A DNA stretch of 28,078 bases. It comes from Alphaproteobacteria bacterium (GTDB taxonomy: Bacteria > Pseudomonadota > Alphaproteobacteria > UBA828). Shown here piece by piece: positions 3,496 to 28,078 of the stretch (its first letter is position 1; every line of letters begins with the position of its first letter). A model generated the notes under the pieces. That model searched no databases and had not been told where the DNA came from. It worked only from the letters and a program-made list of their open reading frames with translations. The stretch is taken from contig OY730417.2 of assembly GCA_963422645.2 (NCBI GenBank), positions 1-28,078 of the forward strand, written 5' to 3'. Position numbers and translations under genes: made by a program.

Positions 3496-3499
3496 GAGG

Positions 3500-5218: not shown

Positions 5219-5243
5219 GAGGCGCGCCTTCGGGCAGTTGTGG

Positions 5244-5255
5244 TATACATGTATA
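5244..5255. promoter_or_regulatory. Palindromic operator of relBE
   Basis: Perfect palindrome TATACATGTATA 22 nt upstream of the antitoxin ATG. Confidence 0.65.
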
Positions 5256-5277
5256 TCAATGCCGGAAGGATCGACGC

Positions 5278-5508
5278 ATGAAACAGGCTGCCGTGCGCCT
5301 GCCCGAGGCCACCTACGACCGTTTGCAAGCTCTCGCCGCTCGGACGGGCCGCACCGCGACGTTCTACATTCGCGAGGCGATCGAGCAGCATCTCGAGGAC
5401 CTCGAAGACTTGTACGCTGCCGAGAAGGCAGCCATCGAACACCGCAAGTCCGGCGAGCGCACCATCTCGCTTGACGAGTTGGGCCATCACCTTGACCTGG
5501 AGAGTTGA
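5278..5508 (+). CDS. relB: Ribbon-helix-helix antitoxin (RelB/CopG-like)
   Basis: MKQAAVRLPEATYDRLQALAARTGRTATFYIREAIEQHLEDLEDLY...ISLDEL; overlaps the toxin start. Confidence 0.85.
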   Translation: MKQAAVRLPEATYDRLQALAARTGRTATFYIREAIEQHLEDLEDLYAAEKAAIEHRKSGERTISLDELGHHLDLES

Positions 5509-5767
5509 GATCGCGGAGAGCGCGGCCAGGCAGATCAAAAAGCCGGGACCCTCCGGTGCAGCGCGCATCCGCGACTGCTTGCGCGACCGGATCGCGCGCC
5601 TCCAGGATCCGCGCCAGCTTGGAAAGCCGCTACGTGGCTCCGAGCTCGGCGCCTTTTGGCGCTATCGTGTCGGGGACTACCGCATCCTCTGCGAGCTTCG
5701 CGACTACGAGCTGCTGGTGCTCGTGATCGAGGTCGGTCATCGCCGTTCGATCTACAACCGTCCCTGA
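5492..5767 (+). CDS. relE: RelE/StbE family toxin
   Basis: TTG start; DPRQLGKPLRG...WRYRVGDYRILCE...VLVIEVGHRRSIY signature. Confidence 0.9.
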   Translation: MTWRVEIAESAARQIKKPGPSGAARIRDCLRDRIARLQDPRQLGKPLRGSELGAFWRYRVGDYRILCELRDYELLVLVIEVGHRRSIYNRP

Positions 5768-7034: not shown

Positions 7035-7281
7035 CTATGCCGTCGTGAGTTCGAGGCGCCTCTCAATCCGGCCGAGCCGGGTGCCGTGACCGTCGAGGCG
7101 TTGGTGGATGATCGCAATACCGCCCTGCATGTTGGCGAGATGACGGTCGATCGTTGCCAGGTGATGCTCGATGGAGGACACGCGGTCGCTGGAGCTCGCC
7201 AAGGCCGTGGGTGAGATCGTCGAGCTGTGCGCGGATCGCACGCAGGTGCTCTGGCACCAGGTTCTCAGTTTCCGGCGGCAT
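7035..7281 (-). pseudogene. Small coiled-coil hypothetical protein, copy 2 (frameshifted)
   Basis: MPPETENLVPEHLRAIRAQLDDLTHGLGEL / DRVSSIEHHLA...RLGRIERRLELTTA split over two frames near 7190. Confidence 0.65.
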
Positions 7282-7345
7282 GACCGCAGCAGCCTACAGG
7301 ATGCGCTCGACGTGTCATCGAGGGCTGAACAGGTTTCCTGAGCCG

Positions 7346-7625
7346 CCAGGCGAAGCCGAGGAACAGCGCCAAGGCTCGGTTGATGGCGACCAGGGCGTCG
7401 TTGTCGAGGCGGCCGAGGCGCGACCCCAGCTTGTCCCGCTTCACCGTCATCGCCTTGTCCACCATGACCTGGGACCGCTCACGGAGACCGTTCCTCGCGG
7501 AAGGCTCCACGGTCAGGCGGATCAGCGGAGCCTCCACCAGCGTGCTCGACACGAGCAGCACCGTGACCGTCGCCGTGGTGTCGAACTGATCGGACTGGAT
7601 GACCAGCGCGGGCCGCGCCTTGCGT
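7346..7625 (-). pseudogene. PemK/MazF toxin lacking its N-terminus and normal stop
   Basis: KARPALVIQSDQF...NGLRERSQVMVDKAMTVKRDKLG...ALALFLGFA; no start region; TGG where a stop is expected. Confidence 0.8.
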
Positions 7626-7797
7626 CGTCCACTCGTCGGCATCCGCCAGGGCGGTGTCCATGAACTCGAGCAGATCCGGATCGGCCAGGTCGGCTTTTGC
7701 TGCGACCTGGCCCTGGCGGCGGCATTCTTCCGCGAAGCCCGGCTTCCCGAAGCGCCAGGCGGTGCTTCCGAACTCGCCGGTTCACCGATGCTGGCAT
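7622..7797 (-). pseudogene. MazE-like (DUF3018) antitoxin with internal deletion
   Basis: MPASVNRRVRKHRLALREAGLR joins out of frame to PGFAEECRRQ...FMDTALAD; the family PxQIWVPD segment is absent. Confidence 0.75.
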
Positions 7798-8117
7798 CGT
7801 GGTACAGCGTCGCCTCGGCAACACGGCACTTCGCGCTACAGCGCGAGGACGCCTTCGCCGCGATCCTTTCTCCCTGAGCGCCACCACGCCGTCCGATCCG
7901 GACGGCGGACAAATTGTGGTGTGCAGCCTCGTCACCGCCGGTCTGTCAGCACTGACGTTCATTGCGGCCAAGCCAACATCTCGCCCGGACCGAGACACGC
8001 GAGCCTGCGAATTGCGCTATCGCGCGTGAGCCGCAACACCAAAAATCGCCCGAACACAGCCCGAATCATCCGCAATTGGGGAGCGTGGGATAGTCCTGCA
8101 CCCACGCCTCGCGGGGG

Positions 8118-10978: not shown

Positions 10979-11019
10979 AAGACCCGCCGCTTCCCCTCGG
11001 TCGCGGCGGGTCTTTCTTT
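10979..11019 (+). terminator. Rho-independent terminator between lipoprotein and Slam gene
   Basis: AAGACCCGCCGC ... GCGGCGGGTCTT stem followed by TCTTT. Confidence 0.7.
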
Positions 11020-11083
11020 GCCGGACCGCAACCCCGCAGCTGTCAGCGTCGGGGTCCGGGCGCTTCTTTCGGGATGGGCATTG

Positions 11084-12559
11084 ATGACGCTCCTTCGGAC
11101 CTTCCGCGCCGCCGCGTTCGTCGCGCTGACGCTTCTCGTCGCCGCGCCGGGCCTCGCCGGCCCGGAAGGGCCGGAGGCGCCGGAAGACCAAGCAGCCGCG
11201 GTGGCGCGCGGCGAGGCGCTGATCGTCGCCGGCAGGCCGGCGGAGGCGCTCGCCCTGCTGCGGCCCCTGGCCGGGCGCGGGCCCGACGACACCGACGCCT
11301 GGTTCTTCCGCGGCCTGGCGGCCGCGAGCGCGGCGCGCCTGCCGGAGGGCCGGCCCGGTGCGCCCGCGACCGCCGACGGGCGGCGGGCGCTTCGGGACGA
11401 GGCGGAGGCGAGCTACCGCCACGTCCTGGCCCGGCGCCCCGGGCTCGCCGGGGCGAGGCTCGAGCTGTCCCGGACGCTGTTCGAGCGCGGGCGCTGCCTC
11501 GAGGAGCCCGACGACCTGCTGGCGCATCTGCTGGGCGACGACTGCGACGCGGCGGCGCACCACTTCCGGCGCGCCCTGGCGGGCGACCTTCCGGCGACGG
11601 TCGCCGCGGCGGTCTCGCGCTACCTCGCCATCGTGCGGGCGCGCAAGCGGGTCTCCGGGCAGTTCCGCATGGCCGTTGCGCCCGACAGCAACGTCAACGC
11701 CGGCACCGATGCGCGCAGCTTCCGCCTGCGCAGCCTGCCGCTGGAGTTCGAGATCGACGAGGAGGCCCGCGCGACTTCCGGCGTCGGGGTGGTCGTCTCG
11801 GCCTCGGGCGAGTATCTCCATCCCCTGGACCTCCGACCCTTCGGGGAGACGGCGACCCGGCTGCGTCTCGGCGCCGGCCTGTGGCGGCGCGAGTACGGCG
11901 GCAGCCGCTTCGACGACATGACGGCCTCGCTGCACGCCGGACCGGAGGTGCTGTTTCCACGCGGGCGCGCCGCCCTGCTGGCTGTGGCGGACCGGCGCTG
12001 GTACGCGGGCGAGCCTTCGAGCCGCGGTCTCGGCCTGCGCCTCGAAGGCGGGCTGCGCCTCGGCGAGCGCCTGTGGCTCGGCGCCGGCGCCGGGGGGATC
12101 GAGCGGCGCCACCGCAACGGCCCCGCCAGCGACGGCCCCAGGCTCGACCTCGACCTCGATCTGGCCTGGGCGGCGACCCCGGCGGTCACGCTGGGGCTGC
12201 GCGGCGGCTGGCACAGAACCCGCGCGGAGCGCCCGAGCCTGCGCGCCCGTACGGCCAAGGTCGGCGCGTTCGCCGGCGCCGACCTGCCGCCGGTGCTCGG
12301 CGCCGCGGGGTTCGTCGCCGGCCTCTCCCACGACGTTCTGTTCACCGCCTACGACGAGCCGGGCTATACGCTGATCGACCCGGACGCGCGCCGCGACCGG
12401 CTGTCGGTCTCCCGGCTCACCCTCTCCAACGACAAGCTGGAGCTGTTCGGCTTCGCCCCGGCACTGTCGCTGGTCCACGAGCGCCGCTCGTCCAACATCG
12501 CCAGCCTCTTCGACTACCGGCGCAACCACGCCGAGCTCTCGCTGCGCCGGGCGTTCTGA
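11084..12559 (+). CDS. Surface lipoprotein assembly modulator (Slam, DUF560) / type XI secretion outer-membrane protein
   Basis: Signal peptide, TPR-like region (DAWFFRGLAA, ARLELSRTLF), APDSNVNAG motif, amphipathic beta-strands, RSSNI..FDYRRN and terminal Phe. Confidence 0.85.
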   Translation: MTLLRTFRAAAFVALTLLVAAPGLAGPEGPEAPEDQAAAVARGEALIVAGRPAEALALLRPLAGRGPDDTDAWFFRGLAAASAARLPEGRPGAPATADGRRALRDEAEASYRHVLARRPGLAGARLELSRTLFERGRCLEEPDDLLAHLLGDDCDAAAHHFRRALAGDLPATVAAAVSRYLAIVRARKRVSGQFRMAVAPDSNVNAGTDARSFRLRSLPLEFEIDEEARATSGVGVVVSASGEYLHPLDLRPFGETATRLRLGAGLWRREYGGSRFDDMTASLHAGPEVLFPRGRAALLAVADRRWYAGEPSSRGLGLRLEGGLRLGERLWLGAGAGGIERRHRNGPASDGPRLDLDLDLAWAATPAVTLGLRGGWHRTRAERPSLRARTAKVGAFAGADLPPVLGAAGFVAGLSHDVLFTAYDEPGYTLIDPDARRDRLSVSRLTLSNDKLELFGFAPALSLVHERRSSNIASLFDYRRNHAELSLRRAF

Positions 12560-12592
12560 CCCCACCCGCCCCGGCACTCGACCCGAGAGAGG

Positions 12593-12835
12593 CTACCGGG
12601 TGCGACGACCAGGGTGCCCGCCGTCCGCCCTGCGGTAAAAGACTGCCGCGGCGACGGCGCGCCCGCCCGGCCAGGGCGCGTATCGCGGGCATCCCGATCC
12701 GTCGTCCCCGGCCGGAACCATGCAGTCATCCTCCCCGAGCCGGATGGCGCCCGGCGGCGGCTCCCGGGCCGCGGTTTCCGCGCAGCCGCAGAGCGCGATC
12801 GCCAGGGCCGCCGCCGCGCAGCCGTCGAGCCGCAT
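12593..12835 (-). CDS. Small putative lipoprotein
   Basis: MRLDGCAAAALAIALCG-C lipobox; begins 13 nt after the subtilase stop; C-terminus may be frameshifted. Confidence 0.55.
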   Translation of the reverse strand: MRLDGCAAAALAIALCGCAETAAREPPPGAIRLGEDDCMVPAGDDGSGCPRYAPWPGGRAVAAAVFYRRADGGHPGRRTR

Positions 12836-12848
12836 CGATCCCGGCGCT

Positions 12849-15248
12849 TCAGAAGGCCAGGCGTATTTTCGCCGCCGCGCCGAACTCCGGCGCGGCCGAG
12901 TCGTCGTGGCCGGGCCCGATGCGCGCATAGCCGCCGACCGCGGCCGATACGCCATCGCCGCCTTGCATCTCGTACACCGCCTGCAGCCGGATCTCCCGCC
13001 CGCGAGGCGCCAGATCGATGACGCGCGGCGTGTAGCGGACGACCCCGTCGGCCACCTCGCGGTCGGGAATGCCGATGCGGACCGCCGCGCCGCGCGCCCG
13101 GAACGGCGACGACGCGGTCAGCGTGAGCCGGTCCGACGCCAGCCAGAGCCGCTCCGCCTCGGCCCCGACCGCGAACGACCCGGCGCGCGCACTGCCCCAT
13201 TGAGAAACCAGGGACGCCCGCTCCGGTGCGCCGCCGGAAGCGACGCCGCGGCCGAGGCTTCCGAACAGCGTCACACCGCCCGATACGCGGCCCTCGACGC
13301 CGAGGTCGAGAAAGCGCGTCGCGGCGTCCGCCGCGCCCGCGAAAGCCCCCCCGGCCCGGATACCCATCAGCGATCCGCTCTCGCGCAACGCGCCGACGCG
13401 CGCGCCGAGGACGATGCGGCCGCCGAACCGGCGGACGATCCCGAGCGAGGCCAGCCGCGTTCTCGCCGACCCGGAGTAGCCCTCTCCGCGCTTGCCCGCG
13501 ACGTCGATTTGCGTGTCCCCGTCGACCCGCCAGTCGAGGCTCAGTCCGGTGCCGCGCCCGGCGAGCGCCGCGAACGCCGCCGCCGCCCATGCGTCCCGGA
13601 ACACGGCGCGGCGCACCCGCGCGGCGGCGAAACCGTTCGACGACCCGAGCGCATGGACCCCCGGCCCGACGGCGACCGCCAGGTCCGGAGCCGGAGCGAA
13701 ACGCAGGCGCCAGTCGCGCACCGTCCCGCGGTCCCGGTCCGCCGCCGGCCGGCGCGGGTCGAACGCATCGTCCCCGTGCGCGAATTGAAGCGCCGCCTGC
13801 CGCCCCAGGGGCACGATCCGGGACGGTTCGCCGGGCACCGACAGGAAGGCGCGCAACGCCCCTTCCGAGGCGCGTCGCCCGGCCGGCCGGAAGAGCGCGG
13901 CCAGATCGTGGCGGAAGGGGAACATCTGCTCGTCGTACACGACGGCGCCGGCCAGGGCGGCGGCGCCCGAAGGCGCCCCGAAGCCCGGCGGCAGATCGAC
14001 GAAACTGTCCGCCAGCGGAACCATGCCCGCCGCGCCCGCGGGCAGGCTCAGGGACCCGACCGGGCTCAGCGCGGCCCCGAGGTCGAGCGCCCCGTGCCCG
14101 AACGTGTCGGAGATCTCCCGCCCGTCCAGCGGGCGGGCCGTCGCCAGCAGGCGCTCCACGATCCCCGCGCCGCCCTTGTTCGGAAACGCGGCCCACACCA
14201 CCGCGGCCGCGCCGGACACGTGCGGGGCGGCGAAGGACGTGCCGTCGACCCGGCCATACCCGCCGCCCGCCCGCGTAGTCGCAACGCGCTCGCCCGGCGC
14301 GAACAGGCAGTACTCCCTGACCGGGCCGCAGGTGTTGCTGTGGGCGGCCCTTCCCGCGCCGCTCTCGTCGAGTGATCCGACCGCGATCGCGAAGCCCGCG
14401 ATCCCCGGGTCCGCCACATGGGCGGCCGGCGCCCCCAGGGGCCCCCGGCCGTCGTTCGAGGCGCACTCGTCCCCGCCGTCGCCGCAATTGCCCAGGACGG
14501 CGACCATGACCCGGCCCGCCCCGGCCGCGTCCCGCATCGCGCCGGCGATCCGGGGAACGTCGTGAAAACCGGGATAGGCGAAGCTCATGTTGACGATGTG
14601 GGAGCTGGCCGCAGGGTCGGACGACACGCCCCCGTAAGTCCGCGCCAGACCCGCCGCGGACGCGATGGAGGCCGCGACGGCGTCGACCGAACCCGCGTCC
14701 GCGAAGTCCCCCGCGCACCCGCCGCCGATCCCGCAGGTCGCGATGCTCCGCAGGTTCGCGTTCCAGGCAACGCCGTGCACGCCGGAGCCGTCGCGACGCG
14801 CCGCGACGATGCCCGCAACGGGCGTCCCGTGCTCGCGAGACAACAGGGCGCTCCGAAACGCGGTCTCCCCGTCGAACCGGCCGGGCACCAGATCGGAATG
14901 CGAGAAGTCGACCCCGTCGTCCAGCACCGCCACCGTGATGCCCCCGCCGCCGGGCCGGCCCGCGTCGCGGCGCGCGTACCCCCCGCTCGCGTCGATCAGG
15001 GCGAGTCCGGTGGAGCGCCTGTACTCGGCGGTCTCCCACGAGACGCGTCCGCCGGGACGCCGGGGCTCCGCCAGCCCGCCTCCGTGCGAGCGAACCCCGC
15101 TCTCCGGCGACACGGGCGATACAACCGGCGGAGGGCCACTCGGCGGCGGCACGGGCGGAGAACCGCCGCCACCGCCGCAGCCGGACAGGACCGCCGCCAG
15201 CAAGCCCGCAGCCGCCAGCGAAGACAGCCTCTCGATCCGGACAAACAT
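12849..15248 (-). CDS. Lipidated S8 subtilisin-like serine protease with C-terminal beta-barrel (autotransporter-like)
   Basis: Lipobox VLSG-C then Gly/Pro linker; triad VAVLDDG, EHGTPVAG, GTSFAAPHVSG; FGHGALDL; beta-rich C-terminal half ending IRLAF; start chosen at ATG 15248. Confidence 0.85.
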   Translation of the reverse strand: MFVRIERLSSLAAAGLLAAVLSGCGGGGGSPPVPPPSGPPPVVSPVSPESGVRSHGGGLAEPRRPGGRVSWETAEYRRSTGLALIDASGGYARRDAGRPGGGGITVAVLDDGVDFSHSDLVPGRFDGETAFRSALLSREHGTPVAGIVAARRDGSGVHGVAWNANLRSIATCGIGGGCAGDFADAGSVDAVAASIASAAGLARTYGGVSSDPAASSHIVNMSFAYPGFHDVPRIAGAMRDAAGAGRVMVAVLGNCGDGGDECASNDGRGPLGAPAAHVADPGIAGFAIAVGSLDESGAGRAAHSNTCGPVREYCLFAPGERVATTRAGGGYGRVDGTSFAAPHVSGAAAVVWAAFPNKGGAGIVERLLATARPLDGREISDTFGHGALDLGAALSPVGSLSLPAGAAGMVPLADSFVDLPPGFGAPSGAAALAGAVVYDEQMFPFRHDLAALFRPAGRRASEGALRAFLSVPGEPSRIVPLGRQAALQFAHGDDAFDPRRPAADRDRGTVRDWRLRFAPAPDLAVAVGPGVHALGSSNGFAAARVRRAVFRDAWAAAAFAALAGRGTGLSLDWRVDGDTQIDVAGKRGEGYSGSARTRLASLGIVRRFGGRIVLGARVGALRESGSLMGIRAGGAFAGAADAATRFLDLGVEGRVSGGVTLFGSLGRGVASGGAPERASLVSQWGSARAGSFAVGAEAERLWLASDRLTLTASSPFRARGAAVRIGIPDREVADGVVRYTPRVIDLAPRGREIRLQAVYEMQGGDGVSAAVGGYARIGPGHDDSAAPEFGAAAKIRLAF

Positions 15249-15402
15249 CCGGCCTCCGTCGCCCCGTTCCCGCGGGAAGGCTGCGCGAAGGGAGCCCCCG
15301 GAACAAGCTCCATGATCAGGCCTCCGCGAGCACGCGATCTGTCCAGTGCAGACACAAGCTCGACCGGGGGCGCCGACGTGTCCTTGTCGGTCGGCTGCAA
15401 GA

Positions 15403-16674
15403 TCAGGGGATGTTGCACGGAGCGCCGGGTCGACCGGCGTGCTGTTTTTCCTGTGCCGTATCCCGAATCGCGGTCGCATAGACAGCGAGGTCCGATGCGC
15501 GCATCCGGAGACTTCGCGCGATGTCCTTCCAGCCACCCAGTGCAGTCGCGACCTCATCGATGATGGCAGCGGCCCGGCTGGCGTTCAGCGCGAAGTATGG
15601 TGCAGCGCTGCGGGCAAGATCCAGATCGGCGCCCGGTCCTTCTTCCGATATCCAGGTGGTCAGTTCCCGCGCCTTTTCGGTCAGCGGCACCGGGTTCAGG
15701 TCATAGGCCGGCGAAAGGCGCCATTTGTTATCGTGATCGTACAGGAAGCCATGGTTGCGGAGGTGATCGTCGAGATTGCCGACCATCACATTGAAGACGA
15801 TCCGCCTCCACAGCTCATGCAGGTCTTCGGTGGGCGCGCTCGAATACATTCTGATGACTTCTGCGATATCCGTGTAGGTCGCTTCGTCGCCGTCGCTGAG
15901 CCCGAGTAGTGTCATGGCGGAAATGAACGGGATTCTTCCGCCTTCGTCGCGGTCGAACCGCGTGATCAGGGACACCGGCCGACCGGCCACGTCCAGCAGT
16001 GTTGCCTGAGCAACATCGATGCCTGCGCCGGCGGCGAGTGTCATCGCCAGCACTTCGCCATGCGGAATGCTGCGATCGTCGTCGTTCTTTGGAAACTTGG
16101 CGATCGCCAGGCGACCGTCATTGTCGATGACGGCGGATTTGGGGCGGGCGCCGCCGAGGGGCGAGCCTTCGTTCAGCAGAAGTCTCAAGTCCTCGGCGGT
16201 TTCGGTGTTGGACAGTACCGCATCGGCGGCGTCGAGGAGCGCCGGCAGCCGGATCAGGGGAGGAACGCGGTAGCGGCCGATGTTGTGGTCGAAGGTCTCC
16301 TCGCCTTCCCGGCGGTACCGGAGCGCGCCTATTCTCGTCCGGTCGTTGATGGCGAGGAGACAGTCGATCTCGGACAGGGCGCGTTGCTCGCCGGCTTTGC
16401 GAAAGGCGCGCCGTATCAGCTGTTGGCCCCAGCAGTCGGGTGCGGTGTCACGCAGCGCACCTGGCGATGCGGACTTGTTGGAGGAGGTGTATATCTGCCG
16501 GCGTTCCAGCGGCAGGTTCGCCGGATCCAGGGCGAAAGCACCGGCGCGGTCGTGCCACGCGTCGGCGTACTCGAACACCGAGCCTTGGCCGTGTCGCCTG
16601 GCAATATAGTGGCATCGGCCGACGAGGCGTGTCGGACCATTATGGTCGACAAAGACCTCGATGGTGTCGGTCAT
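15403..16674 (-). CDS. hipA: HipA family Ser/Thr kinase toxin
   Basis: GSPLGGARPK, IAKFP, RFDR, GNLDDHLRNHGF, LSPAYDLNP motifs. Confidence 0.9.
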   Translation of the reverse strand: MTDTIEVFVDHNGPTRLVGRCHYIARRHGQGSVFEYADAWHDRAGAFALDPANLPLERRQIYTSSNKSASPGALRDTAPDCWGQQLIRRAFRKAGEQRALSEIDCLLAINDRTRIGALRYRREGEETFDHNIGRYRVPPLIRLPALLDAADAVLSNTETAEDLRLLLNEGSPLGGARPKSAVIDNDGRLAIAKFPKNDDDRSIPHGEVLAMTLAAGAGIDVAQATLLDVAGRPVSLITRFDRDEGGRIPFISAMTLLGLSDGDEATYTDIAEVIRMYSSAPTEDLHELWRRIVFNVMVGNLDDHLRNHGFLYDHDNKWRLSPAYDLNPVPLTEKARELTTWISEEGPGADLDLARSAAPYFALNASRAAAIIDEVATALGGWKDIARSLRMRASDLAVYATAIRDTAQEKQHAGRPGAPCNIP

Positions 16675-17006
16675 GACTGTGGCCGGGCGCGGCGGCGCGG
16701 CTGCACCTTCCTGGGCAGTCGATCCTCGTCGATGTCCAGTCCGAGGGAATCGTCTCGCCGGTCGACCGCCTGGACAAGGCGGTCGGCGAGCCCCAGGATG
16801 GCCAATACGGTTGCGTAGATGCCGATCGAGACCGACGGGTCGCCTCGTTCGACTTTGTAGAGGGTGCCGCGGCTGATGAATGCGCGCTCAGCCATCGAAA
16901 CTGTCGAGATGCGACGCTTCTTGCGGGCGACCGCGATGTCCGCGCCGAGCTTGGCGAGGGCCTGTTTGGCTGCTCTGGGAAGGGCATGTGTCGCCAGCGT
17001 TTTCAT
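16671..17006 (-). CDS. XRE-family HTH antitoxin (HipB-like)
   Basis: LGADIAVARKKRRIS...AERAFISRGTLYKVERGDPSVSIG; ATGA overlap with hipA. Confidence 0.85.
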   Translation of the reverse strand: MKTLATHALPRAAKQALAKLGADIAVARKKRRISTVSMAERAFISRGTLYKVERGDPSVSIGIYATVLAILGLADRLVQAVDRRDDSLGLDIDEDRLPRKVQPRRRARPQS

Positions 17007-17671
17007 CGTATGTCCTATAAAGAACGCAATAGAGGCATATATTGTTCATTACACAAGACATTAGAGGTGGATCAACAGATTTCGGATCTTGACCGCAGCC
17101 GGATGAGCAAGACCATCCCTCGGGTGCGCCGCATATCGCTGCGTGCGTCCCGTCGGTTGGCCCAGGTGGAGGGGCGGGGTGGAAGATCGGGGAAGGTGAC
17201 ATGCAGATTTGCGAGGCTGCGCTTCAAGAACGTACGGCGAGACCCTGGTAGCGAGCGCAGCCGTGTCGCCACCCGACGAGAAGCAGCGCCAGCTGTGGTG
17301 AGACGGTAATCACCTGGGGCAGTCTGGGCCGCCGGCGCACACTGAATGGGGAGACCCAGGCGGAGCTGATCGCCTGCGCGATCGAGAGCGCAATGCGCGA
17401 GGCGTTGCGCGCCCTCATCGTCGACTCTCGCGGGAAGGTGCGCCCGAACGAGCGCACGAAGCTGTTGTGGCTCTCGGCGGCGTGTCTCGTGGACCCGCGC
17501 GGAAGCCGGCAAGCGCTTGTGGAGGCGGCGGACGATCCTGACTTTCCCGGCCATGTCCGGGAGGCGACAGGGCGCATGAACCGCTACGCCGATGCGCCGC
17601 TCGAGGTCGTGTCCCCGGGCGTGGTGTAGGAGGGAGGCTCCTGTAGACGGACAGAAGTCTCTGTGAATCGG

Positions 17672-17856: not shown

Positions 17857-18194
17857 GCGCGCCGCGGGTTGCGTGCGATCTCTTCGTCGGAGAACGGCTT
17901 TCGTCCGGGGTTCTCGACCTCCCGGCTTTCCATCCATGGCAGCGACTGGCATCCGCAGTTGATCGTCTTGGCGGCGGGTCCGGCGGGATCGCGGGGGTAC
18001 ATGAGCGTGGCGCCGCCGACGCTGAAGGGCCTGGCGGTTTCCCTGATCTGTCCGTCGACGGCGTCGTGGGCGATGCGGCTTCCGGGCTTTCCGGAGCGTC
18101 GCCACTGCTTCTTCAGCCCCGGCAGGACCTCGGCGGCCTGTTCCATGCGCTGCTGTGCGGCCATTGAGAAGGCGCGGCCGAGCTGGGTGTTGAA
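17857..18194 (-). pseudogene. Phage head morphogenesis (MuF/SPP1 gp7-like) C-terminal fragment
   Basis: TQLGRAF...LKKQWRRSGK..SRIAHDAVDGQ...LMYPRDP..PAAKTINCGC motif; no N-terminus. Confidence 0.75.
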
Positions 18195-18215
18195 GGGTCT
18201 GCGAGGGCGGCGGTG

Positions 18216-18701
18216 CCCCCGAACGGTGGCGGGCCGCACTCGACCGCCCGTGCCGCCCCGGTCCCGCCCGTGCACGGGCCATGCACAGGCCATTTTTCCA
18301 GCCCTGTTCAGCCCCGAAAATCAGCCGGTTTTCCGGGCGATTCCTGAGGACTTTCGTCCGCCTACACCTGCTATGAACCCTACTTCAGTGCCAGGTGACC
18401 GGGGCGGGGTAGCGGTGCCAGCCGCGCGCCGTCCGCACTCTGGCACAGGTTGCGGGGTTTCAAATCTGAAACGTCTTCGGTAGGGTCGCCGGCGTTTCGG
18501 GTCTGAAACGAGAGGCCGCGTCATGCCGAGGAACCGCCCCGAGCACTTCCACGTCTGGCGAAAGGCGAAAGGCGACAGGATTTTCTACGTTCTGCGGCGG
18601 CCCTTCAACACCAGCCAAGCCGCCGGCCAATGGGCGAAGCGGCGCGAACCGGACAAGGCCCGGTTCATGGTTTTGCGATGCACGGAAGAGCGCTGCGCCC
18701 C
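18216..18701 (+). repeat. Dispersed repeat X, copy 1
   Basis: 18386-18701 appears identical to 22971-23286 (316 bp); 18216-18561 matches the reverse complement of 27612-27982. Confidence 0.9.
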
Positions 18702-19972: not shown

Positions 19973-20015
19973 TCAAAGCCGGAATCAACCCGCTTCATCC
20001 CAAGATTTGCCCCTC

Positions 20016-20546
20016 TTACAAGTCAGCGTCCAGCGGCGGAGGCGGTAGGGGGCAAGCCGGCCATACGCACAAAAAAACGCGGTATGATAAACGTTTGGCC
20101 AAAAGCCAGTTTTCCCCTAGGTCTTCGACGGATATTTCTCCAAGTGCTGACCCCTCCTGCTCCGCTCGCGCATGAAATTGTTTGAACCACTCCCGCAAAT
20201 GTGTCTGAGCGACAGTGTCGTTGGGATACGCCAACTCTGCAAAATTCGGCGGAGTGCCTTCCAAGAACTCAATGACGTCCTGCTCTTCGAGTTCTTGCCA
20301 TATATGCGAGCCGATTACAAAAAAGTGTGCTGTATTATCAGCCTCCCCCTCAACCAAGGAATCCCACAGACGAGAAAACTGTCTTAAATCGTTCACAGAC
20401 GCTATTTCCGAGACAAGTTGCCGCCCGGCGTTGCGTTGCGTGCCGTTTTCTCCATTCTCTGCCACTGAATCCGTTGCAGCAAGTATCGAGAGCATCGTTG
20501 CAAAAATCAAAAACGCATTTTTGGGTTTACCGCAAAAAGACATCAT
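20016..20546 (-). CDS. Hypothetical exported protein (low-GC island)
   Basis: Hydrophobic N-terminal signal-like segment; GGAGG RBS; ATGA overlap with upstream gene; C-terminal CVWPAC-polyPro. Confidence 0.6.
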   Translation of the reverse strand: MMSFCGKPKNAFLIFATMLSILAATDSVAENGENGTQRNAGRQLVSEIASVNDLRQFSRLWDSLVEGEADNTAHFFVIGSHIWQELEEQDVIEFLEGTPPNFAELAYPNDTVAQTHLREWFKQFHARAEQEGSALGEISVEDLGENWLLAKRLSYRVFLCVWPACPLPPPPLDADL

Positions 20547-21061
20547 GTTGCCTCCCCTTGATCCTTTCGTTGCCAGAGACTAAATGAAAGAAAACCAGCT
20601 GTGGTTAGTATTGCCAGACTGCTGGCAGCAATTTGAACCAAACTAACACACCGAAGACTCGCATAGTAGTCGTTGCGGAAATGTTGCCTAGCGTCGACAA
20701 TGTAGCACTCCAATGATCCATTCCACCCGGTCGAAATTTCAGAAAAGAAGCCTGTTCTATATGCTATAACTAGAAAACTACACGCTACGGCTAATACAAA
20801 TAATGACAATGGAATAAACAATAAATTCACTCCCTTAACCAGGGTTTCATCGCGACTCAGCTTCGCTTCCCTAGCCCGGAACAAAATTGACAGAATAAAA
20901 CCAATGCTGGCTGCCGAGATTCCGGTAGCGACATCAGCTTGCATTTGTATTCCGTCGACGAACTGCAGTACCGTATCGGGGATGTCGGGATATGAGTACG
21001 CATCCGACGTGCTCTCTACGCCATTTTCTGTGCACATCTCGTAATTGATATCAACTTGCAT
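20543..21061 (-). CDS. Hypothetical membrane protein, ~3 TM helices (low-GC island)
   Basis: Three hydrophobic stretches; GGAG RBS; visibly AT-richer than the flanks. Confidence 0.65.
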   Translation of the reverse strand: MQVDINYEMCTENGVESTSDAYSYPDIPDTVLQFVDGIQMQADVATGISAASIGFILSILFRAREAKLSRDETLVKGVNLLFIPLSLFVLAVACSFLVIAYRTGFFSEISTGWNGSLECYIVDARQHFRNDYYASLRCVSLVQIAASSLAILTTAGFLSFSLWQRKDQGEAT

Positions 21062-21155: not shown

Positions 21156-22099
21156 TCAGGCTGCCAATATCCCCTTGAATCGATCTTCCTGTTGCTGCTG
21201 TTGCGCCTGTGGGTATGTGGGCAAGGCGCGGAGCGGCTTGTCCATCATATCATATCCACAGGCAGGCCGTCCCGGCAGGCCTCGGCCGGCGTCCGCCCGC
21301 CCAGCGCCGAGTGCGGCCTGATGGTGTTGCAGAAGCCGATCCACTCGCCGATGACGCGCCGGGCGGTGAAGCCGTCGGCGATCTCGTGCAGGTAGACCGC
21401 CTCGTATTTCATCGAGCGCCAGAGCCGCTCGATGAAGATGTTGTCCATGCACCGGCCCCGCCCGTCCATCGAGATGCGGATGCCGAGCCGCCTGCAGGCG
21501 GCCGGTGAAGGCGAAGCTGGTGAACTGGCTGCACTGGTCGGTGTTGAAGATCTCCGGCGCGCCATGCCGATCCAGGGCCTCCTCAAGCGCGTCTGTACAG
21601 AAGCCGGCATCCAGCGTGTTCGACAGCTGCCAGGCCAGGATGTGGCGGCTCGCCCAGTCCATGATCGCCACCAGGCAGAGGAAGCCGCGCTGCACCGGGA
21701 TACAGGTGATGTCGGCGCACCAGACGTGGTCCGGCCGCTCGATCCGCAGACCCTTGAGCAGACAGGGCCAGACCCCCGGTGCTCGGGGTGCGGAGCGCTG
21801 GTGCGCTGCGCCCGCCAGACCGCCTGAAGACCCAGAAGGCGCATCAGCCGAGCGGCCCGGCGGCGCCCGATGCATACCCCCTCGCGGCGAAGATGGCGAA
21901 CCATCTGGCGGGCGCCGTAGAACAGACCCTTCAGGAACAGCTCGTCGATCCGACGCATCAGCGCCAGCGTCTCGGCGCTCTCGCCCTTCGGCTCGTAGTA
22001 GAGCGAGGAGCGCCCGATCGACAGCAGCCGGCATTGCCGGCTCAGGCTCAGCGCCGGATGATCGCGCTCCACCATCGCCCGACGCTCGGCCCGGCTCAT
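21156..22099 (-). pseudogene. IS3 transposase OrfB (DDE), frameshifted
   Basis: Conserved blocks alternate between two frames, shifts near 21775 and 21495. Confidence 0.85.
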
Positions 22100-22386
22100 C
22101 GACCGGACCCGCGAGACAAAAAATCCCGCTCCACGATCAGCTCCCCGATCTTGGCGTGAAGATCGCGCACTTCGCCCTCATGATCCCGGACCCGGCGTTC
22201 CGCGCCCTTCGAGAACAGCTCGGCCAGACCCTCGATCGCCTGGCGCTTCCACGCACCCACCTGGTTCGGATGAACCTGGTGCCGAGAGGCGATCTCCTGA
22301 AGCGTCCGATCACCCCGAAGCGCCTCAAGCACGATCTTCGACTTCTGCTCTCCCGAAAATCTCCGCCGCTGGCTGCTCATATGCAT
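22096..22386 (-). CDS. IS3 transposase OrfA
   Basis: RRRFSGEQKSKIVLEAL...HPNQVGAWK...KIGELIVERDFL. Confidence 0.85.
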   Translation of the reverse strand: MHMSSQRRRFSGEQKSKIVLEALRGDRTLQEIASRHQVHPNQVGAWKRQAIEGLAELFSKGAERRVRDHEGEVRDLHAKIGELIVERDFLSRGSGR

Positions 22387-22450: not shown

Positions 22451-22970
22451 TCACGATTTATGTGTCATGGGGAATGGGGTAGCGGTTCCCTGACATTTGT
22501 TTTGGTGGCTGAAGACGGCGAAGAGGATTCGGTTCATTGAGGTTTGGTCCTGGAAGGTTCCCATGGGCCGGGTCCTTCGCCGGACCTCTCGGAAGCGTCG
22601 TTCGATGGCGTTGGTGGTCCTGACCTGCTTTCGCTCGGCGAGGCTTGAGTAGCGGAAGCATGTGAGCAGGTCGTCGAGGTCGTTGCGCAGGCAGGCGACG
22701 GCCTTGGGGTAGGTCTCCTCCCAGGCATCGGCGAAGCGTCGGGCGGCGCTGAGCGCCTTGGGCCGGTTGGGGGCGTTCATGACGGCGTGGAGGCTGGCCT
22801 TCACGGCATCGCGGTGGGGTTTGCGGACCTTGTCGAGGATGTTTCTGATCTTGTGCGCCCAGCAGCGCTGGAGCGGGATGCTGGGGTAGACCGTCGGCAG
22901 TGCTGCAATCAGGCCTTGGCCGCCGTCGGCGCAGATCACCTCGAGACCCTCTCCGGCGAGCCCCCTGCGC
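22451..22970 (-). pseudogene. IS256-family transposase, C-terminal half
   Basis: ADGGQGL, QRCWAHKIRN, RTTNAIERRFREVRRRTR; truncated at repeat X. Confidence 0.85.
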
Positions 22971-23286
22971 CAGTGCCAGGTGACCGGGGCGGGGTAGCGG
23001 TGCCAGCCGCGCGCCGTCCGCACTCTGGCACAGGTTGCGGGGTTTCAAATCTGAAACGTCTTCGGTAGGGTCGCCGGCGTTTCGGGTCTGAAACGAGAGG
23101 CCGCGTCATGCCGAGGAACCGCCCCGAGCACTTCCACGTCTGGCGAAAGGCGAAAGGCGACAGGATTTTCTACGTTCTGCGGCGGCCCTTCAACACCAGC
23201 CAAGCCGCCGGCCAATGGGCGAAGCGGCGCGAACCGGACAAGGCCCGGTTCATGGTTTTGCGATGCACGGAAGAGCGCTGCGCCCC
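22971..23286 (+). repeat. Dispersed repeat X, copy 2 (contains ORF 23108-23323)
   Basis: 316-bp direct copy of 18386-18701. Confidence 0.9.
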
Positions 23287-23293
23287 GGATTTG

Positions 23294-23352
23294 ATCGCCG
23301 GGCCTCCTCTTCCCATAGCCTAAGGGTGGACCAATTCCATGGGCGAGGATCA
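23294..23352 (-). mobile_element. Isolated IS3-family left end
   Basis: AGGGTGGACCAATTCCATGGG.GAGGATCA shared with the IS end at ~26044-26073. Confidence 0.7.
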
Positions 23353-23367
23353 GTATTGGCAACCGTT

Positions 23368-23405
23368 CCCGAATGTCCGATAATTACAGTTATCGGACAT
23401 TCGGG
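23368..23405. promoter_or_regulatory. lox-like recombination site: 16-bp perfect arms with 6-bp asymmetric core
   Basis: CCCGAATGTCCGATAA-TTACAG-TTATCGGACATTCGGG, ending 6 nt before the recombinase ATG. Confidence 0.75.
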
Positions 23406-23411
23406 CCAGCC

Positions 23412-24350
23412 ATGACAGACGCCGCCGACCGCAAGATCGCCGCCGCCCCGCCCGTTCGAGAGCTCGCGCCCGCCGTGCAGGCCAGACTCGAAGCTGCATG
23501 GGCCGCCTCGAAGTCGCCCGCCACGCGCCGGGCCTACCGCACCGCATGGGCCACGTGGACGGCATGGGCCGATGCGCACGGGGGCACGTCCCTTCCCGCC
23601 GCCCCGCAAGCCGTCGCAGCCTACCTCGCGGCCCGCGCCGAAGCCGGCGCCGGCATGGCAACCCTGCGCATGGCAACGGCCGCAATCGGGGCCGCGCACG
23701 AGCTCGCCGGCGAAACCTCGCCGTGCGCGAACCGGCTTGTGAAAACTGCGATGCAGGGTTTCGCCCGGCAAGCCGCCGAAGCCGGCGCAACCGTCCGCCA
23801 GGCGCGCGGGCTGACCGCCGAAGCCGTGGCCGCGATCCGGGGCGCGCTCAGCGGCCGGGCCGATACCAGCCGGCGCGCCGCCCGCGACATGGCGCTTGTC
23901 TCCGTCATCGCCGATGCCGGCTTGCGCCGCTCGGAAGCCGCCGCGCTGGCATGGGCCGATATCGAGGTCGAGGCCGACGGCTCCGGGCGCGTCACTGTCC
24001 GGCGCTCGAAGACCGATCAGGAAGGCACAGGCGCGGTCGTGGCGATCACGCCGGCGGCAATGGCCGATCTCGACCGCCTGGCGGCTCTGCGCGGCGGCCG
24101 CGATCCGGATTTGCCGGTCTTCCGGCTGTCGGACAGGCAGATCGCGCGCCGCATCGCCGCCATGGCGATGCTGGCCGGCCTGGGCGACGGCTTCAGCGGG
24201 CATTCCGGGCGCGTCGGCATGGCGCAACGCATGACGCGCAACGGCGCGCCCGCACCCGCCGTCATGCGGCAAGGGCGGTGGAGCACAACCGGCATGGTCG
24301 CCCGTTACACCCGCAACGAGGGCGCCGGCGAGGCGCTGCGATACCTCTAG
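23412..24350 (+). CDS. Cre-like tyrosine recombinase
   Basis: SAM-like N-terminus (SPATRRAYRTAWATW); catalytic R (GLRRSE), K (RRSKTDQ), HxxR (GHSGRVG), W (QGRW), Y (MVARY). Confidence 0.9.
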   Translation: MTDAADRKIAAAPPVRELAPAVQARLEAAWAASKSPATRRAYRTAWATWTAWADAHGGTSLPAAPQAVAAYLAARAEAGAGMATLRMATAAIGAAHELAGETSPCANRLVKTAMQGFARQAAEAGATVRQARGLTAEAVAAIRGALSGRADTSRRAARDMALVSVIADAGLRRSEAAALAWADIEVEADGSGRVTVRRSKTDQEGTGAVVAITPAAMADLDRLAALRGGRDPDLPVFRLSDRQIARRIAAMAMLAGLGDGFSGHSGRVGMAQRMTRNGAPAPAVMRQGRWSTTGMVARYTRNEGAGEALRYL

Positions 24351-24359
24351 TCCACGGGA

Positions 24360-24528
24360 GACCGGCGTCGAGACCCGCCAGGCCGAAGCCATTGCCGCCG
24401 CGATCCGCGACGGACAGGGCGAGCTTGCCACAAAGGCGGACCTCGCCGGCATCGAAACCCGCATGGTCAAGTTCGGCTTCGGCCTCGCCGTCGGGATCGT
24501 CGCCATGAACACGGCCTTGATCGTCGGC
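24360..24528 (+). pseudogene. DUF1640/CCDC90-like fragment
   Basis: GVETRQAEAIAAAIRDGQGELATKADLAGIETRMVKFGFGLAVGIVA; no start. Confidence 0.6.
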
Positions 24529-24583
24529 TTCCGCATGCTCAACGTCCTGGACGAGTTCACCCGCGAGAGCCTGGCCATCCGGG
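24529..24583 (+). pseudogene. Tiny IS3 integrase-core fragment
   Basis: FRMLNVLDEFTRESLAIR is a characteristic IS3 OrfB block. Confidence 0.6.
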
Positions 24584-24635
24584 ATGCTCATGGCGTTGCC
24601 GCGGATACACCGAAATCCCCGCCGCCGGTCAAAGG

Positions 24636-25070
24636 TCAGGCGGCTTCTTCCACGGTCACCACCAGGCGCTTCCTGAAGCGGGCCAGGGCTTCCTCCAGCC
24701 GGCCGATCTTGGTGGCGTGGCGGGGGTCGAGCATACGGCGAACCTCGCTCTCCTGGACGCCCATGGCCGTCGCGAAAGCGCTGTTGGACAGCCGCTCTTC
24801 GCGTAGCGCCTCGTAAAGCGCCGCCTTGGCGGCCAGCACCGCGCCCGGAACCGCCGCAGGCCGGCCCCTGGCCGGGCTCGACGCCGGAATGTCCTCGCGC
24901 CGCGCCATCCGGCCCGCGAGCGCCTCCTCCAGGCAGTCCGCGGCTTCCGCCACCGCCTCGGCGAGCGTCTCGCCGTCCGTGAAGGCTTCGTCGAAGTCCG
25001 GGAAGGTGACCGAATACCCGCCTTCGCGTTCCTCGTGGAGGTCGATGGGGTAGCTGTACCGCATTGCCAT
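24636..25070 (-). CDS. hicB: HicB antitoxin
   Basis: GGYSVTFPDFDEAFTDGETLAEAVAEAADCL...C-terminal HTH (EVRRMLDPRHATKI); own GGGAG RBS. Confidence 0.9.
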   Translation of the reverse strand: MAMRYSYPIDLHEEREGGYSVTFPDFDEAFTDGETLAEAVAEAADCLEEALAGRMARREDIPASSPARGRPAAVPGAVLAAKAALYEALREERLSNSAFATAMGVQESEVRRMLDPRHATKIGRLEEALARFRKRLVVTVEEAA

Positions 25071-25082
25071 GATCGCAACTCC

Positions 25083-25295
25083 CTGGAGGTCGTTCGGGTC
25101 GATGCCGAGCTGCTTGCACATGCCGCGCAGCGTGCCGGTCTTGAGCGACTTCCTGCGGTCCTTCACCACGGTATGGCGGTCACCGCAATAGAGGGTGCCG
25201 TGGCTGCCCTTGCCCCTCGTCCGGTCGAACCTGACCGCGACCCCGTTCCTGCGCGCCAGCTTCCTAACCCTCGTAATGAATTCACGCCCGTTCAC
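25083..25295 (-). CDS. hicA: HicA toxin; stop codon lost so it reads in frame into hicB
   Basis: GTG start; RGKGSHGTLY...KTGTLRGMCKQLGIDPNDL then CAG at 25083-25085 where a stop is expected. Confidence 0.85.
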
Positions 25296-25449
25296 GGCCG
25301 GCACTCTCGCACAAAAATGCGCGAATAGGCAGGGGTTGTCTCGAACATTCTCATGCAGGCGGCAACATCCGGCATCGCAGAGGGAGAGAAAAACTCTTCG
25401 GGAGCGAAGCCGCTGACGGAGAGTATCAATCGGCTTTGAAGTTTGACCC

Positions 25450-25670
25450 TGAACCGCCCCGACTTTCCCGGAGGCTCCATCCTGTGAGAAGGAGGAGCCG
25501 TTATGGGAAGACATTCGACACGTTATCCGGCGGAGGTTCGCGAACGGGCTGTCCGGCTGGTTTTCGAGCACCGGGGCGAGCATGGCTCGCAATGGGCGGC
25601 GATGTGTTCGATCGCGGCGAAGTTCGGCTGCACGACCGGGACGCTGCGGCGGTGGGTCCGTCAGGCTGAA
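25450..25670 (+). mobile_element. IS3-family left end with truncated OrfA (ATG 25503)
   Basis: IR TGAACCGCCCCG..TTTCCCGGAGGCT; RYPAEVRERAVRLV...SIAAKFGCT..TLRRWVRQAE. Confidence 0.8.
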
Positions 25671-26073
25671 GCCCGGCGCTCCGGGATCCCGAGCCGGTCA
25701 CGGACATGATCGATGCACTGGCGGCGGTGCGAGGGGCTCGGAAGTTTCCCCGGGCGGCCTCCTTGAGGATCTGCTTGTCCAGCGTCAGGTCAGAAACCGC
25801 ACGGCGCAGCCGCTCGTTCTCCTGCTCAAGCTCCTTCAAACGGCGGAGCTGATCGCCGCTCATCCCGGCATACTCCTTGCGCCACCTGTAGAAGGTAACC
25901 TCGCCGATCCCGAGCTGCCGGATCGCGTCCGCCATCGACATGCCCTGGCCATGCAGGACTTCTGCCTGCCGCAGCAGGATCACGATCTCCTCCGGCTTGT
26001 AACGCTTCCTCGCCATCGTCGGTCCTCCTCTTTCCGTAACCTGAGGGTGGACCAATTCCATGGGGGAGGATCA
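25671..26073 (-). mobile_element. IS3-family (IS407-like) left end, OrfA from ATG 26016, truncated early in OrfB
   Basis: MARKRYKPEEIV..LRQAEVL...TFYRWRKEYAGM...LDKQILKEAARGNF; IR TGATCCTCCCCC. Confidence 0.85.
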
Positions 26074-26306: not shown

Positions 26307-26522
26307 ATGGGATATGCAAGCCCCGGCGGACGAAACGAGGCCGGTATCAACATCAAGGTGCGCCCCGAGCTTCGCGCGCGCGCTGACACGTGCGCGACTC
26401 TCGAAGGGCTGACCACGCCGGAATTCGTGCGCGCGGCCATCGTCGCCCACTGCGAGCGCATCGAGAAGCTGCACGGCCAGCGCCAGCGCGCCGCGAAGGC
26501 CGCGCTGGCGGGCCGCGAATGA
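26307..26522 (+). CDS. Small ribbon-helix-helix-like regulator
   Basis: GGAGG RBS; INIKVRPELRARAD..ATLEGLTTPEFVRAAI; ATGA overlap with next gene. Confidence 0.6.
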   Translation: MGYASPGGRNEAGINIKVRPELRARADTCATLEGLTTPEFVRAAIVAHCERIEKLHGQRQRAAKAALAGRE

Positions 26523-26782
26523 CCATGGCCGCATCGTTCGACACGCTGGCCGCCGCCCGCCGGATGGAGCAAGCCGGGCTGCAACGCGAGGCGGCCGAAG
26601 CCGTGGCGTCAGCCATCCGCGCCGGGCAAGGCGATCTCGCCACGCGGGCTGACCTGAACGGGTTGCGCGAAGCAACCGGGGCGGACCTGGCCGCGCTGGA
26701 AGCCCGCATGTACCGTGCCATGATGTTGCAGGCCGTTGCCATCGCCGGGATCGTGATCGCCGCGCTCAAGCTGATCCCGTAG
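26519..26782 (+). CDS. DUF1640/CCDC90-like coiled-coil membrane-anchored protein
   Basis: FDTLAAARRMEQAG..REAAEAV...DLATRADL...C-terminal TM helix. Confidence 0.75.
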   Translation: MTMAASFDTLAAARRMEQAGLQREAAEAVASAIRAGQGDLATRADLNGLREATGADLAALEARMYRAMMLQAVAIAGIVIAALKLIP

Positions 26783-27611: not shown

Positions 27612-27982
27612 TCGCCAGACGTGGAAGTGCTCGGGGCGGTTCCTCGGCATGACGCGGCCTCTCGTTTCAGATCCGAAACGCCGGCGACCCTACCGAAGAC
27701 GTTTCAGATTTGAAACCCCGCAACCTGTGCCAGAGTGCGGACGGCGCGCGGCTGGCACCGCTACCCCGCCCCGGTCACCCGGCACTGAAGTAGGATTCAT
27801 AGCAGGTGTAGGCGGACGAAAGTCCTCAGGAATCGCCCGGAAAACCGGCTGATTTTCGGGGCTGAACCGGGCTGGAAAAATGGCCTGTGCATGGCCCGTG
27901 CACGGGCGGTGCGTGAGGGGCTCAGGCGCGGTCGGGACCGGGGCGGCACGGGCGGTCGAGTTCGGCCCGCCACCGTTCGGGG
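27612..27982 (-). repeat. Dispersed repeat X, copy 3 (inverted, ORF truncated)
   Basis: Reverse complement of ~18216-18561 with a few substitutions and a ~25-nt insertion at ~27909-27933. Confidence 0.9.
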
Positions 27983-28078
27983 TCGCGGGGATACATGAGC
28001 GAATCGCCGCCGACGCTGAAGGGCCTGGCGGTTTCCCTGATCTGTCCGTCGACGGCGTCGTGGGCGATGCGGCTTCCG
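27983..28078. repeat. MuF-fragment repeat and 17-nt terminal overlap
   Basis: Matches ~17989-18084 directly; 28062-28078 equals 1-17. Confidence 0.9.

Follow-up and report, generated by a model that had tools for sequence, protein, structure and literature searches.

A Cre-type tyrosine recombinase gene and its probable palindromic target site, which overlaps the predicted promoter, on a plasmid-like contig of an uncultured alphaproteobacterium

The DNA analysed here, which we call the window, is the whole 28,078-nucleotide (nt) stretch at positions 1 to 28,078 (forward strand) of contig OY730417.2, from the assembly GCA_963422645.2 of an Alphaproteobacteria bacterium in the UBA828 lineage. 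At 23368-24350 it contains an intact gene for a Cre-type tyrosine recombinase and, ending 6 nt before the ATG of that gene at 23412, a 38-base-pair (bp) palindrome that in all likelihood is the site to which the recombinase binds. The features of this locus are as follows.

23356-23361, + strand: −35-like hexamer TTGGCA (promoter scan)
23368-23383, + strand: left arm of the palindrome, CCCGAATGTCCGATAA (repeat search, 16 nt)
23379-23384, + strand: −10-like hexamer GATAAT, formed by the inner end of the left arm and the first spacer base
23384-23389, + strand: asymmetric spacer TTACAG, 6 nt, where strand exchange is presumed to occur
23390-23405, + strand: right arm of the palindrome, TTATCGGACATTCGGG (repeat search, 16 nt)
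23412-24350, + strand: Cre-type tyrosine recombinase gene, 312 amino acids (aa) (Pfam, PDB matches, AlphaFold2 fold)
23925-23927, + strand: codon of R172
24009-24011, + strand: codon of K200
24201-24203, + strand: codon of H264
24210-24212, + strand: codon of R267
24279-24281, + strand: codon of W290
24306-24308, + strand: codon of Y299

The gene encodes what a first-pass annotation of this stretch had claimed, an intact Cre-type recombinase with the R-K-HxxR-W-Y set. Its open reading frame (ORF) is open and intact from 23373 to 24350 (325 aa), with an in-frame ATG at 23373 that falls within the left arm. The likelier start is ATG 23412, which is also that of the 312-aa entry of our protein collection corresponding to the window protein (P0001); the N-termini of homologs differ in length. 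Pfam detects a Phage_integrase catalytic domain (1.1e-14) and, below threshold, a SAM-like N-terminal domain, while a sequence search of the Protein Data Bank (PDB) at E ≤ 0.001 gave 17 distinct matches, every one of them to Cre or Tre (best 2e-15). Residues R172, K200, H264, R267, W290 and Y299 (P0001 numbering) are invariant in a 32-member family alignment and align, by phmmer, on the Cre motifs LLR, TKT, GHSxRVG, GxW and xxY; the catalytic residues of Cre are R173, K201, H289, R292, W315 and Y324 (PMC10250229). An AlphaFold2 model computed from the family alignment, with a mean pLDDT (per-residue confidence score) of 87, shows a two-domain Cre-like fold lacking any additional arm-binding domain and has only Cre and Tre structures, from Cre-DNA complexes, as its top Foldseek matches (E 1.9e-14, template-modelling score 0.64-0.73 over ~310 columns), followed by weaker matches to XerA (5.7e-8), IntI (2a3v, 1.2e-5), XerH, lambda Int and XerD. 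None of the Xer models of NCBIfam comes near its cut-off, the best being XerA with 35.7 bits against 220. The Pfam and PDB matches, the catalytic residues, the fold and the sub-cut-off Xer scores together identify the window protein, as far as sequence and a modelled fold can, as a simple Cre-type tyrosine recombinase. It belongs to a large family: 3120 of 8000 scored proteins match at E ≤ 0.001, the best non-self match at 83% identity and the nearest relatives (P0002-P0010) at 76-83%.

The palindrome is as clear-cut as the gene. Its two 16-nt arms are 100% complementary and 6 nt apart in the repeat search, and the same palindrome can be parsed into 15-nt arms around an 8-bp core, ATTACAGT; as 16+6+16 or as 15+8+15 it satisfies the palindrome search criteria given in PMC10250229. 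Across the 28078-base window the arm matches, at up to three mismatches, solely at these two positions, and in a shuffle control it matched 0.14 times on average, with two matches in 0 of 100 shuffles. The central 16-mer, GATAATTACAGTTATC, is also unique in the window at up to three mismatches, and neither the arm search nor this core search found a second site there. The perfect 16-bp arms around TTACAG and the single copy, both read from the sequence in the first-pass annotation, therefore stand.

Related loci reveal how this site evolves. A genome scan with one genome per species gave 264 of them, and 80 of the 264 were analysed, which is the scope of all that is said below about relatives; 77 of the 80 had upstream DNA to examine. 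A palindrome of the same design (...TAA-N(3-8)-TTA..., at least 9 of 12 arm positions complementary, no more than 260 nt upstream) precedes 32 of the 77 homologous genes, compared with 16 of 2155 control windows of equal size from the same loci, and these 16 matches probably include family sites further upstream. The spacer is 6 nt long in 29 of 33 sites (the window's included), but its sequence is free, with 29 different versions among the 33, as had been predicted for homologs that keep their arms. TTACAG itself also occurs in two Dehalococcoidia loci whose arms differ from those in the window. In a quick maximum-likelihood tree, where the out-of-frame rows L010 and L072 are unreliable, arm sequence tracks recombinase clade: GCGCGATAA arms are found in 17 of 17 rows of one Dehalococcoidia clade, TCCGATAA-like arms wherever a site is present in the window's own alphaproteobacterial clade (10 rows), and GCGxTATAA arms in the bin90-type clade. 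Because the arms are conserved and change with the protein while the spacers are free, the palindrome is very probably cognate to the recombinase. In fifteen Dehalococcoidia copies the conserved stretch begins ~80 nt ahead of the palindrome and ends exactly with the stop codon.

Two further candidates for conserved features were rejected. A half-site hidden in the gene end (...ALRYL-stop) does not agree with the 15 copies, whose last codons vary freely at synonymous positions, so that conservation there is at the protein level; and a conserved divergent upstream gene is not found, nine upstream ORFs sharing nothing (mean column identity 23%) and thus being spurious or unrelated. Four sites combine intact arms with odd spacers, of 3 nt in L024, 5 nt in L027, 4 nt in L072 and 7 nt in L015, which may mean that they lost crossover activity but were retained as operators, or may reflect errors of assembly.

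The site is also merged with a predicted promoter. TTGGCA-17-GATAAT (23356-23384) matches the sigma-70 consensus at 10 of 12 positions and is the sole promoter of this type in 23200-24500, where 0.1 would be expected by chance, which supports an earlier proposal that site and promoter overlap. The geometry recurs in the family, GATAAT or TATAAT lying at the arm/spacer position in 24 of the 33 sites and a TTG hexamer at the 17-nt spacing in 18. Since the site covers both the −10 hexamer and the −35/−10 interval, autoregulation is reasonable to expect, and self-repression via a promoter occupied at the site is plausible. As a conserved trait of the family, crossover site and promoter would be fused, with autoregulation built in.

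The closest experimental precedent is the YR9/lox9 pair. Jelicic et al. (2023) sought palindromes no more than 1 kb from Cre-type genes and described ~500 predicted pairs, some of which were tested (PMC10250229). One of these recombinases, YR9 from a Sphingomonas koreensis plasmid, recombines lox9 (CGTCTGTCCGATA ATCTTTCT TATCGGACATACT) in Escherichia coli, and Table S2 of the same paper has five further predicted sites with GTCCGATAA arms (PMC10250229). The window half-site, CGAATGTCCGATA, is identical to each of the lox9 half-sites, CGTCTGTCCGATA and AGTATGTCCGATA, at 11 of 13 positions, and two differences in 13 fall within the pseudo-site criterion (at most two mismatches) stated in that paper. 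In both systems a Cre-type recombinase gene in a plasmid or plasmid-like setting has a palindromic site upstream of it and on the same strand, with the core TGTCCGATA next to the spacer and GATAAT at the arm/spacer border. They differ in the spacer, ATTACAGT in the window versus ATCTTTCT in the published lox9, in the window arms being perfect over 16 nt, and in the distance to the start codon, 6 nt versus the ~130 nt found upstream of the YR9 gene, on the same strand, in its native record CP018821.1. YR9 was moreover tested in E. coli in that study, whereas the window protein is known here from sequence alone. The two proteins are 27% identical with 26% gaps (E 1e-15), in the quick tree YR9 stands apart on a long branch, and by sequence the window recombinase is not a YR9 orthologue.

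The precedent limits what can be called new. The window's exact site and spacer are absent from the six GTCCGATAA rows of Table S2, and GCGCGATAA-type sites are absent from the supplementary tables (PMC10250229). Literature searches on this recombinase family (symbiont genomes, defence islands, recombinase mining) yielded nothing specific. Against a plasmid collection the gene DNA had no match, and protein matches on plasmids, in 21 records, were relatives of at most 37% identity (43% over partial matches). Among these distant relatives, a Flagellatimonas plasmid homolog has ACGTGTCCGATAA tgacag TTATCAGACACGA just upstream, and a plasmid-borne homolog in Methylobacterium indicum has a CCGATAA-type palindrome in the same place. 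Since lox9 has been tested and sites lie upstream of distant plasmid-borne relatives, the site class and architecture are known and experimentally validated, while the window protein and its subfamily are uncharacterised. The first-pass annotation had called the site the recombinase's own and new, and the pair probably uncharacterised and possibly orthogonal. The site is very probably its own, as cognate, but it is not new, the half-site core TGTCCGATA being that of the published lox9 target. The protein is indeed uncharacterised, with 27% identity to YR9 and no closer tested relative found. Orthogonality to YR9/lox9 is not fully supported and looks doubtful, because a half-site only 2 of 13 positions away from that of the window, for each published lox9 half-site, has already been tested with YR9.

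Other known systems share parts of this layout. Cre resolves P1 plasmid dimers, and loxP is not known to overlap the cre promoters, in which it differs from the promoter-overlapping site of the window. Among solved structures, Cre is the best match in sequence and fold and has the same catalytic set, and loxP resembles the window site in its inverted arms, its asymmetric spacer and its position beside the gene, once on a plasmid-like replicon. The identity of the window protein to Cre is only ~22%, and the window half-site shares 7 of 13 positions with the loxP half-site quoted in PMC10250229. Like IntI/attI, the window has a tyrosine recombinase beside a primary site and promoter, and some relatives have genes in between; in contrast to IntI/attI, gene and site in the window share a strand, IntI (2a3v) is a weaker fold match than Cre (1.2e-5 versus 1.9e-14), and the inserted genes in relatives have no flanking second site, no search having been aimed at attC. 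On the modelled fold, then, this is not an integron integrase. The single-recombinase Xer systems XerS/difSL, XerH/difH and archaeal XerA/dif combine one recombinase with a near-palindromic site, ~11-nt arms ending in ATAA and a 6-nt spacer, and their sites sometimes directly adjoin the gene. The window protein differs in scoring far below the NCBIfam cut-off and in matching XerA and XerH folds much less well than Cre, and its relatives number 2-5 per genome where dif would be expected once per chromosome. ResD/rfsF of F and TnpI/IRS of Tn4430 also have their site immediately upstream of the recombinase gene, one per replicon. TnpI/IRS differs in its accessory direct repeats, as a repeat search of 23200-23600 found none like DR1/DR2 around the window site.

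How might the pair work? We consider it fairly probable that gene and site form a self-contained Cre-type recombination module. The palindrome is likely, to judge from the sequence comparisons above, to be a true crossover site, a grade below the near-confidence with which we regard it as a binding site. A dimer of the 312-aa recombinase would bind the 38-bp site at its two inverted arms, a tetramer would synapse two such sites, and the R-K-H-R-W-Y active site would exchange strands across the central 6 bp, by analogy with the Cre/loxP mechanism. The occupied site would repress transcription, the left arm and spacer holding the −10 hexamer and the arm filling the −35/−10 interval. With a single site on plasmid-like DNA, the most likely task would be to resolve multimers of the replicon, and fusion or resolution with other DNA bearing a compatible site would be a by-product. 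That multimer resolution is the main role in the window we propose only tentatively.

This role depends on the character of the surrounding DNA, in which we located the following features.

3500-3675 (3478-3675 in the family table): eight head-to-tail 22-bp iterons, GGGGGCAGAAGCCCGTGCGCTA, followed by AT-rich DNA
203-649, − strand: toxin-antitoxin-type gene, PIN
7268-7912, − strand: toxin-antitoxin-type gene, PemK/MazF
15406-16674, − strand: toxin-antitoxin-type gene, HipA (N- and C-terminal domains)
23294-23352, − strand: end remnant of an element of the IS3 family of insertion sequences (IS), 88% identical to 26015-26073
24352-24603, + strand: 5′-truncated paralogue of the ORF at 26390-26779 (18 of 33 residues identical to residues 61-93, E 5e-10)
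24639-25592, − strand: ORF with HicA-like and HicB-like parts, downstream of the truncated paralogue

The iteron region at 3478-3675 resembles an origin of plasmid replication. Neither of the adjacent ORFs, 2380-3495 (+) and 4336-5568 (−), has a family match; the ORF at 1812-2495 (−) has a plasmid replication DNA-binding match of 49.9 bits, below the cut-off of 85, and its relatives are found on 72 plasmid records. At its two ends (1-17 and 28062-28078) the window has the same 17 bases, so it may be a circular replicon of 28,061 bp, or a contig ending within a repeat. The picture suggests that the window is plasmid-like.

Immediately around the recombinase the DNA is heavily rearranged, as witnessed by a three-copy repeat, a split IS3-type element, an IS256-type fragment and an IS3-type OrfA gene. 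The repeat, of ~300-430 nt, lies at 18245-18677, 22963-23262 and 27612-27928, its copies 96-99% identical and one of them inverted, and the IS3-type element at 21159-22386 has its transposase frame split over two ORFs. The IS3 remnant, whose counterpart at 26015-26073 is the element end adjoining the OrfA gene (25504-26061), ends 4 nt upstream of the −35 hexamer and 16 nt upstream of the site, so native DNA further upstream has been lost; upstream of the remnant lie the repeat, which is also found at 18378-18677, and the IS256-type fragment (22454-23023). On the other side, the truncated paralogue begins right after the stop codon, which makes the 3′ end of the recombinase gene a rearrangement breakpoint, and homology to relatives likewise stops at 24350. 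This paralogue has no Pfam family at E ≤ 1, and the complete ORF has a weak CCDC90-like/DUF1640 hint (E 0.015).

The relatives are distributed in a way that a plasmid resolution system does not explain. Multiple loci, 2-5 of them, are found in each of at least 12 genomes or bins: four are on OZ253486.1, three each on OZ253540.1, OX638345.1 and OZ220731.1, and in one SAR202 bin they occupy five contigs. The hosts, many of whose bins may come from sponge microbiomes, as one record title states for its own bin, span six phyla and include Alpha- and Gammaproteobacteria, Chloroflexota, Actinomycetota, Binatota and Tectimicrobiota. Copies within a genome are 80-88% identical, but only over a stretch of ~1.0-1.1 kb that begins ~80 nt ahead of the site and closes with the stop codon. 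In one bin, two copies match at 99.8%, and this identity is confined to the ORF. Their neighbours vary and include IS elements, MazF, PIN, HEPN, AbiL, CBASS, DRT1a, type IIG restriction-modification and DndB; with IS proteins and cold-shock domains excluded, 9 of 32 loci, a figure that has no control, have a PADLOC match at E ≤ 1e-10, to AbiL, CBASS, DRT1a and type IIG systems among others. L057, from an Actinomycetota bin, is nested in the short-branched Chloroflexota clade L045-L060, either by recent cross-phylum transfer or as mis-binned mobile DNA.

Eight loci have their site further away, 1.1-2.7 kb upstream of the recombinase match. One of them, L078, has an interrupted recombinase gene; in the other seven, further genes intervene. 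None of the eight has a second site. Six of the intervening genes belong to a family and the seventh is an ORF of no family; 5′-truncated recombinase pieces also occur near full copies, most keeping their similarity up to the stop codon.

L022 3978-4904, L037 3982-4890, L038 3878-4825 and L076 2536-3453: intervening nucleotidyltransferase-domain protein, ~305 aa
L055 2453-3646: intervening STAND-type AAA ATPase; the insertion starts ~130 nt after the site
L046 3127-4962: intervening SNF2 helicase
L079 6893-7015, 8339-8930 and 9855-10336; L020 6767-6866: truncated recombinase pieces
L024 6496-6657; L035 2610-2986: truncated recombinase pieces

Alignments of related copies also reveal where their shared DNA ends. 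Between L009 and L015, identity runs through the right arm and breaks in or at the spacer; it breaks at the same place between L041 (proximal) and L017, both of which have the spacer tcactc, and the similarity of L043 to a related copy does likewise. To judge from these alignments, the breaks in L009, L041 and L043 have the footprint expected of crossover with a secondary site. Given the multi-copy relatives and these breaks, the natural role may be wider than resolution.

Several observations weigh against a self-regulated, plasmid-borne resolution module. YR9 is weak in E. coli (16%), its authors considered a need for a cofactor, and directed evolution raised its activity ~seven-fold (PMC10250229). 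The closest relative among the examined loci, L001 (79% aa identity), has no palindrome within 260 nt upstream, where its DNA is unrelated to that of the window, and 45 of 77 loci have no good nearby site. The predicted promoter implies a short 5′ untranslated region, in which ATG 23412 is not preceded by a clear Shine-Dalgarno sequence. Rep families all stay below their cut-offs in the window, and the terminal overlap is part of a repeat with another copy at 17984-18221, so it could be an assembly effect. Finally, dimer resolution of a single replicon would not call for several chromosomal copies, as the relatives have. The dimer resolution put forward in the first-pass annotation thus fits the window, with its single site on plasmid-like DNA, but leaves these relatives unaccounted for.

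An alternative, which the spread of the relatives would permit, is that the module serves integration and excision, or DNA capture, for a mobile island, with its site acting like a simple attP or attI. The recombinase and a cargo of toxin-antitoxin and defence genes would then move between replicons via secondary sites. The presence of several copies within genomes that share ~1.0-1.1 kb only, the spread across phyla, including L057 within a Chloroflexota clade, and the half-site junctions in L009, L041 and L043 all agree with this, as do the varied surroundings, in which IS, toxin-antitoxin and defence genes abound (PADLOC matches in 9 of 32 loci), the genes between site and recombinase in seven loci, and the window gene itself, flanked by a truncated gene on its 3′ side and by IS debris upstream. 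We nevertheless rate both the function and the movement of cargo as rather unlikely. There is no second full site in the 80 loci (~5 kb on each side) or in the window, and both sides of the palindrome are conserved, unlike in an element integrated through its site. Most paralogues are 80-88% identical and so are old copies, not recent hops. The defence-gene figure has no control, and metagenome bins can misplace mobile DNA. A broader version, which we regard as speculative and a little less likely still, is that a large undescribed Cre-like subfamily forms a portable, self-regulated “socket” across at least six phyla, capturing, shuffling and moving neighbouring gene sets via secondary sites; its diverged copies, several to a chromosome and with individual spacers, lying amid toxin-antitoxin, defence and IS genes, would be consistent with it.

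The palindrome could instead be an operator only, through which a recombinase homolog represses its own promoter and exchanges no strands. The site spans the −10 hexamer and the −35/−10 spacer in a conserved geometry, and the deviant spacer lengths (4 of 33 sites) would be tolerated more readily by an operator than by a crossover site. We find this improbable in view of the six catalytic residues, invariant in 32 family members, of YR9, reported to recombine a site with the same half-site core, and of the homology breaks at the spacer in three loci. Least credible of all, to the point that we give it hardly any weight, is a chance repeat or an RNA hairpin acting as attenuator or terminator. 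The predicted folding energy is low (−34.7 kcal/mol, z-score −6.05), but the stem has no following T run, the predicted promoter would start transcription inside the palindrome, and no Rfam family reaches its gathering score; half-sites and the published lox9 precedent favour a DNA site, and chance is excluded by the shuffle control and by the conservation of 32/77 against 16/2155.

As a self-regulated Cre-type module, the pair would be of interest beyond this contig. For tool builders it is one more candidate Cre-type pair, together with a warning that it may not be orthogonal to YR9/lox9. The protein is distant from every tested enzyme (27% identical to YR9, ~22% to Cre), yet it is predicted to read almost the lox9 half-site as published, so that the window pair and YR9 offer a natural test case of how different proteins recognise the same DNA. 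The multi-copy, cross-phylum distribution in chromosomes of uncultured bacteria is unusual, and dimer resolution does not explain it.

Some features elsewhere in the window deserve mention. A 12-mer at 17009 that matches the recombinase arm with two mismatches was rejected as a second site, having no matching partner arm. It coincides with an imperfect palindrome containing ATGTCCTATAA at 17005-17045, intergenic beside the hipA operon, which resembles the arm at 10 of 12 positions; this palindrome is probably unrelated to the recombinase site and perhaps is the operator of the hipA operon. G+C content reaches ~76% in a block at 11001-15000, compared with ~65% elsewhere. A 902-aa subtilase-family ORF (12852-15557, −) lies in this block, and just before it is an 889-aa ORF (8250-10916, +) with internal repeats and no family match. 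A stretch of 48% G+C at 20001-21061, with two − strand ORFs of no family match (20019-20546 and 20546-21061), looks like foreign DNA.

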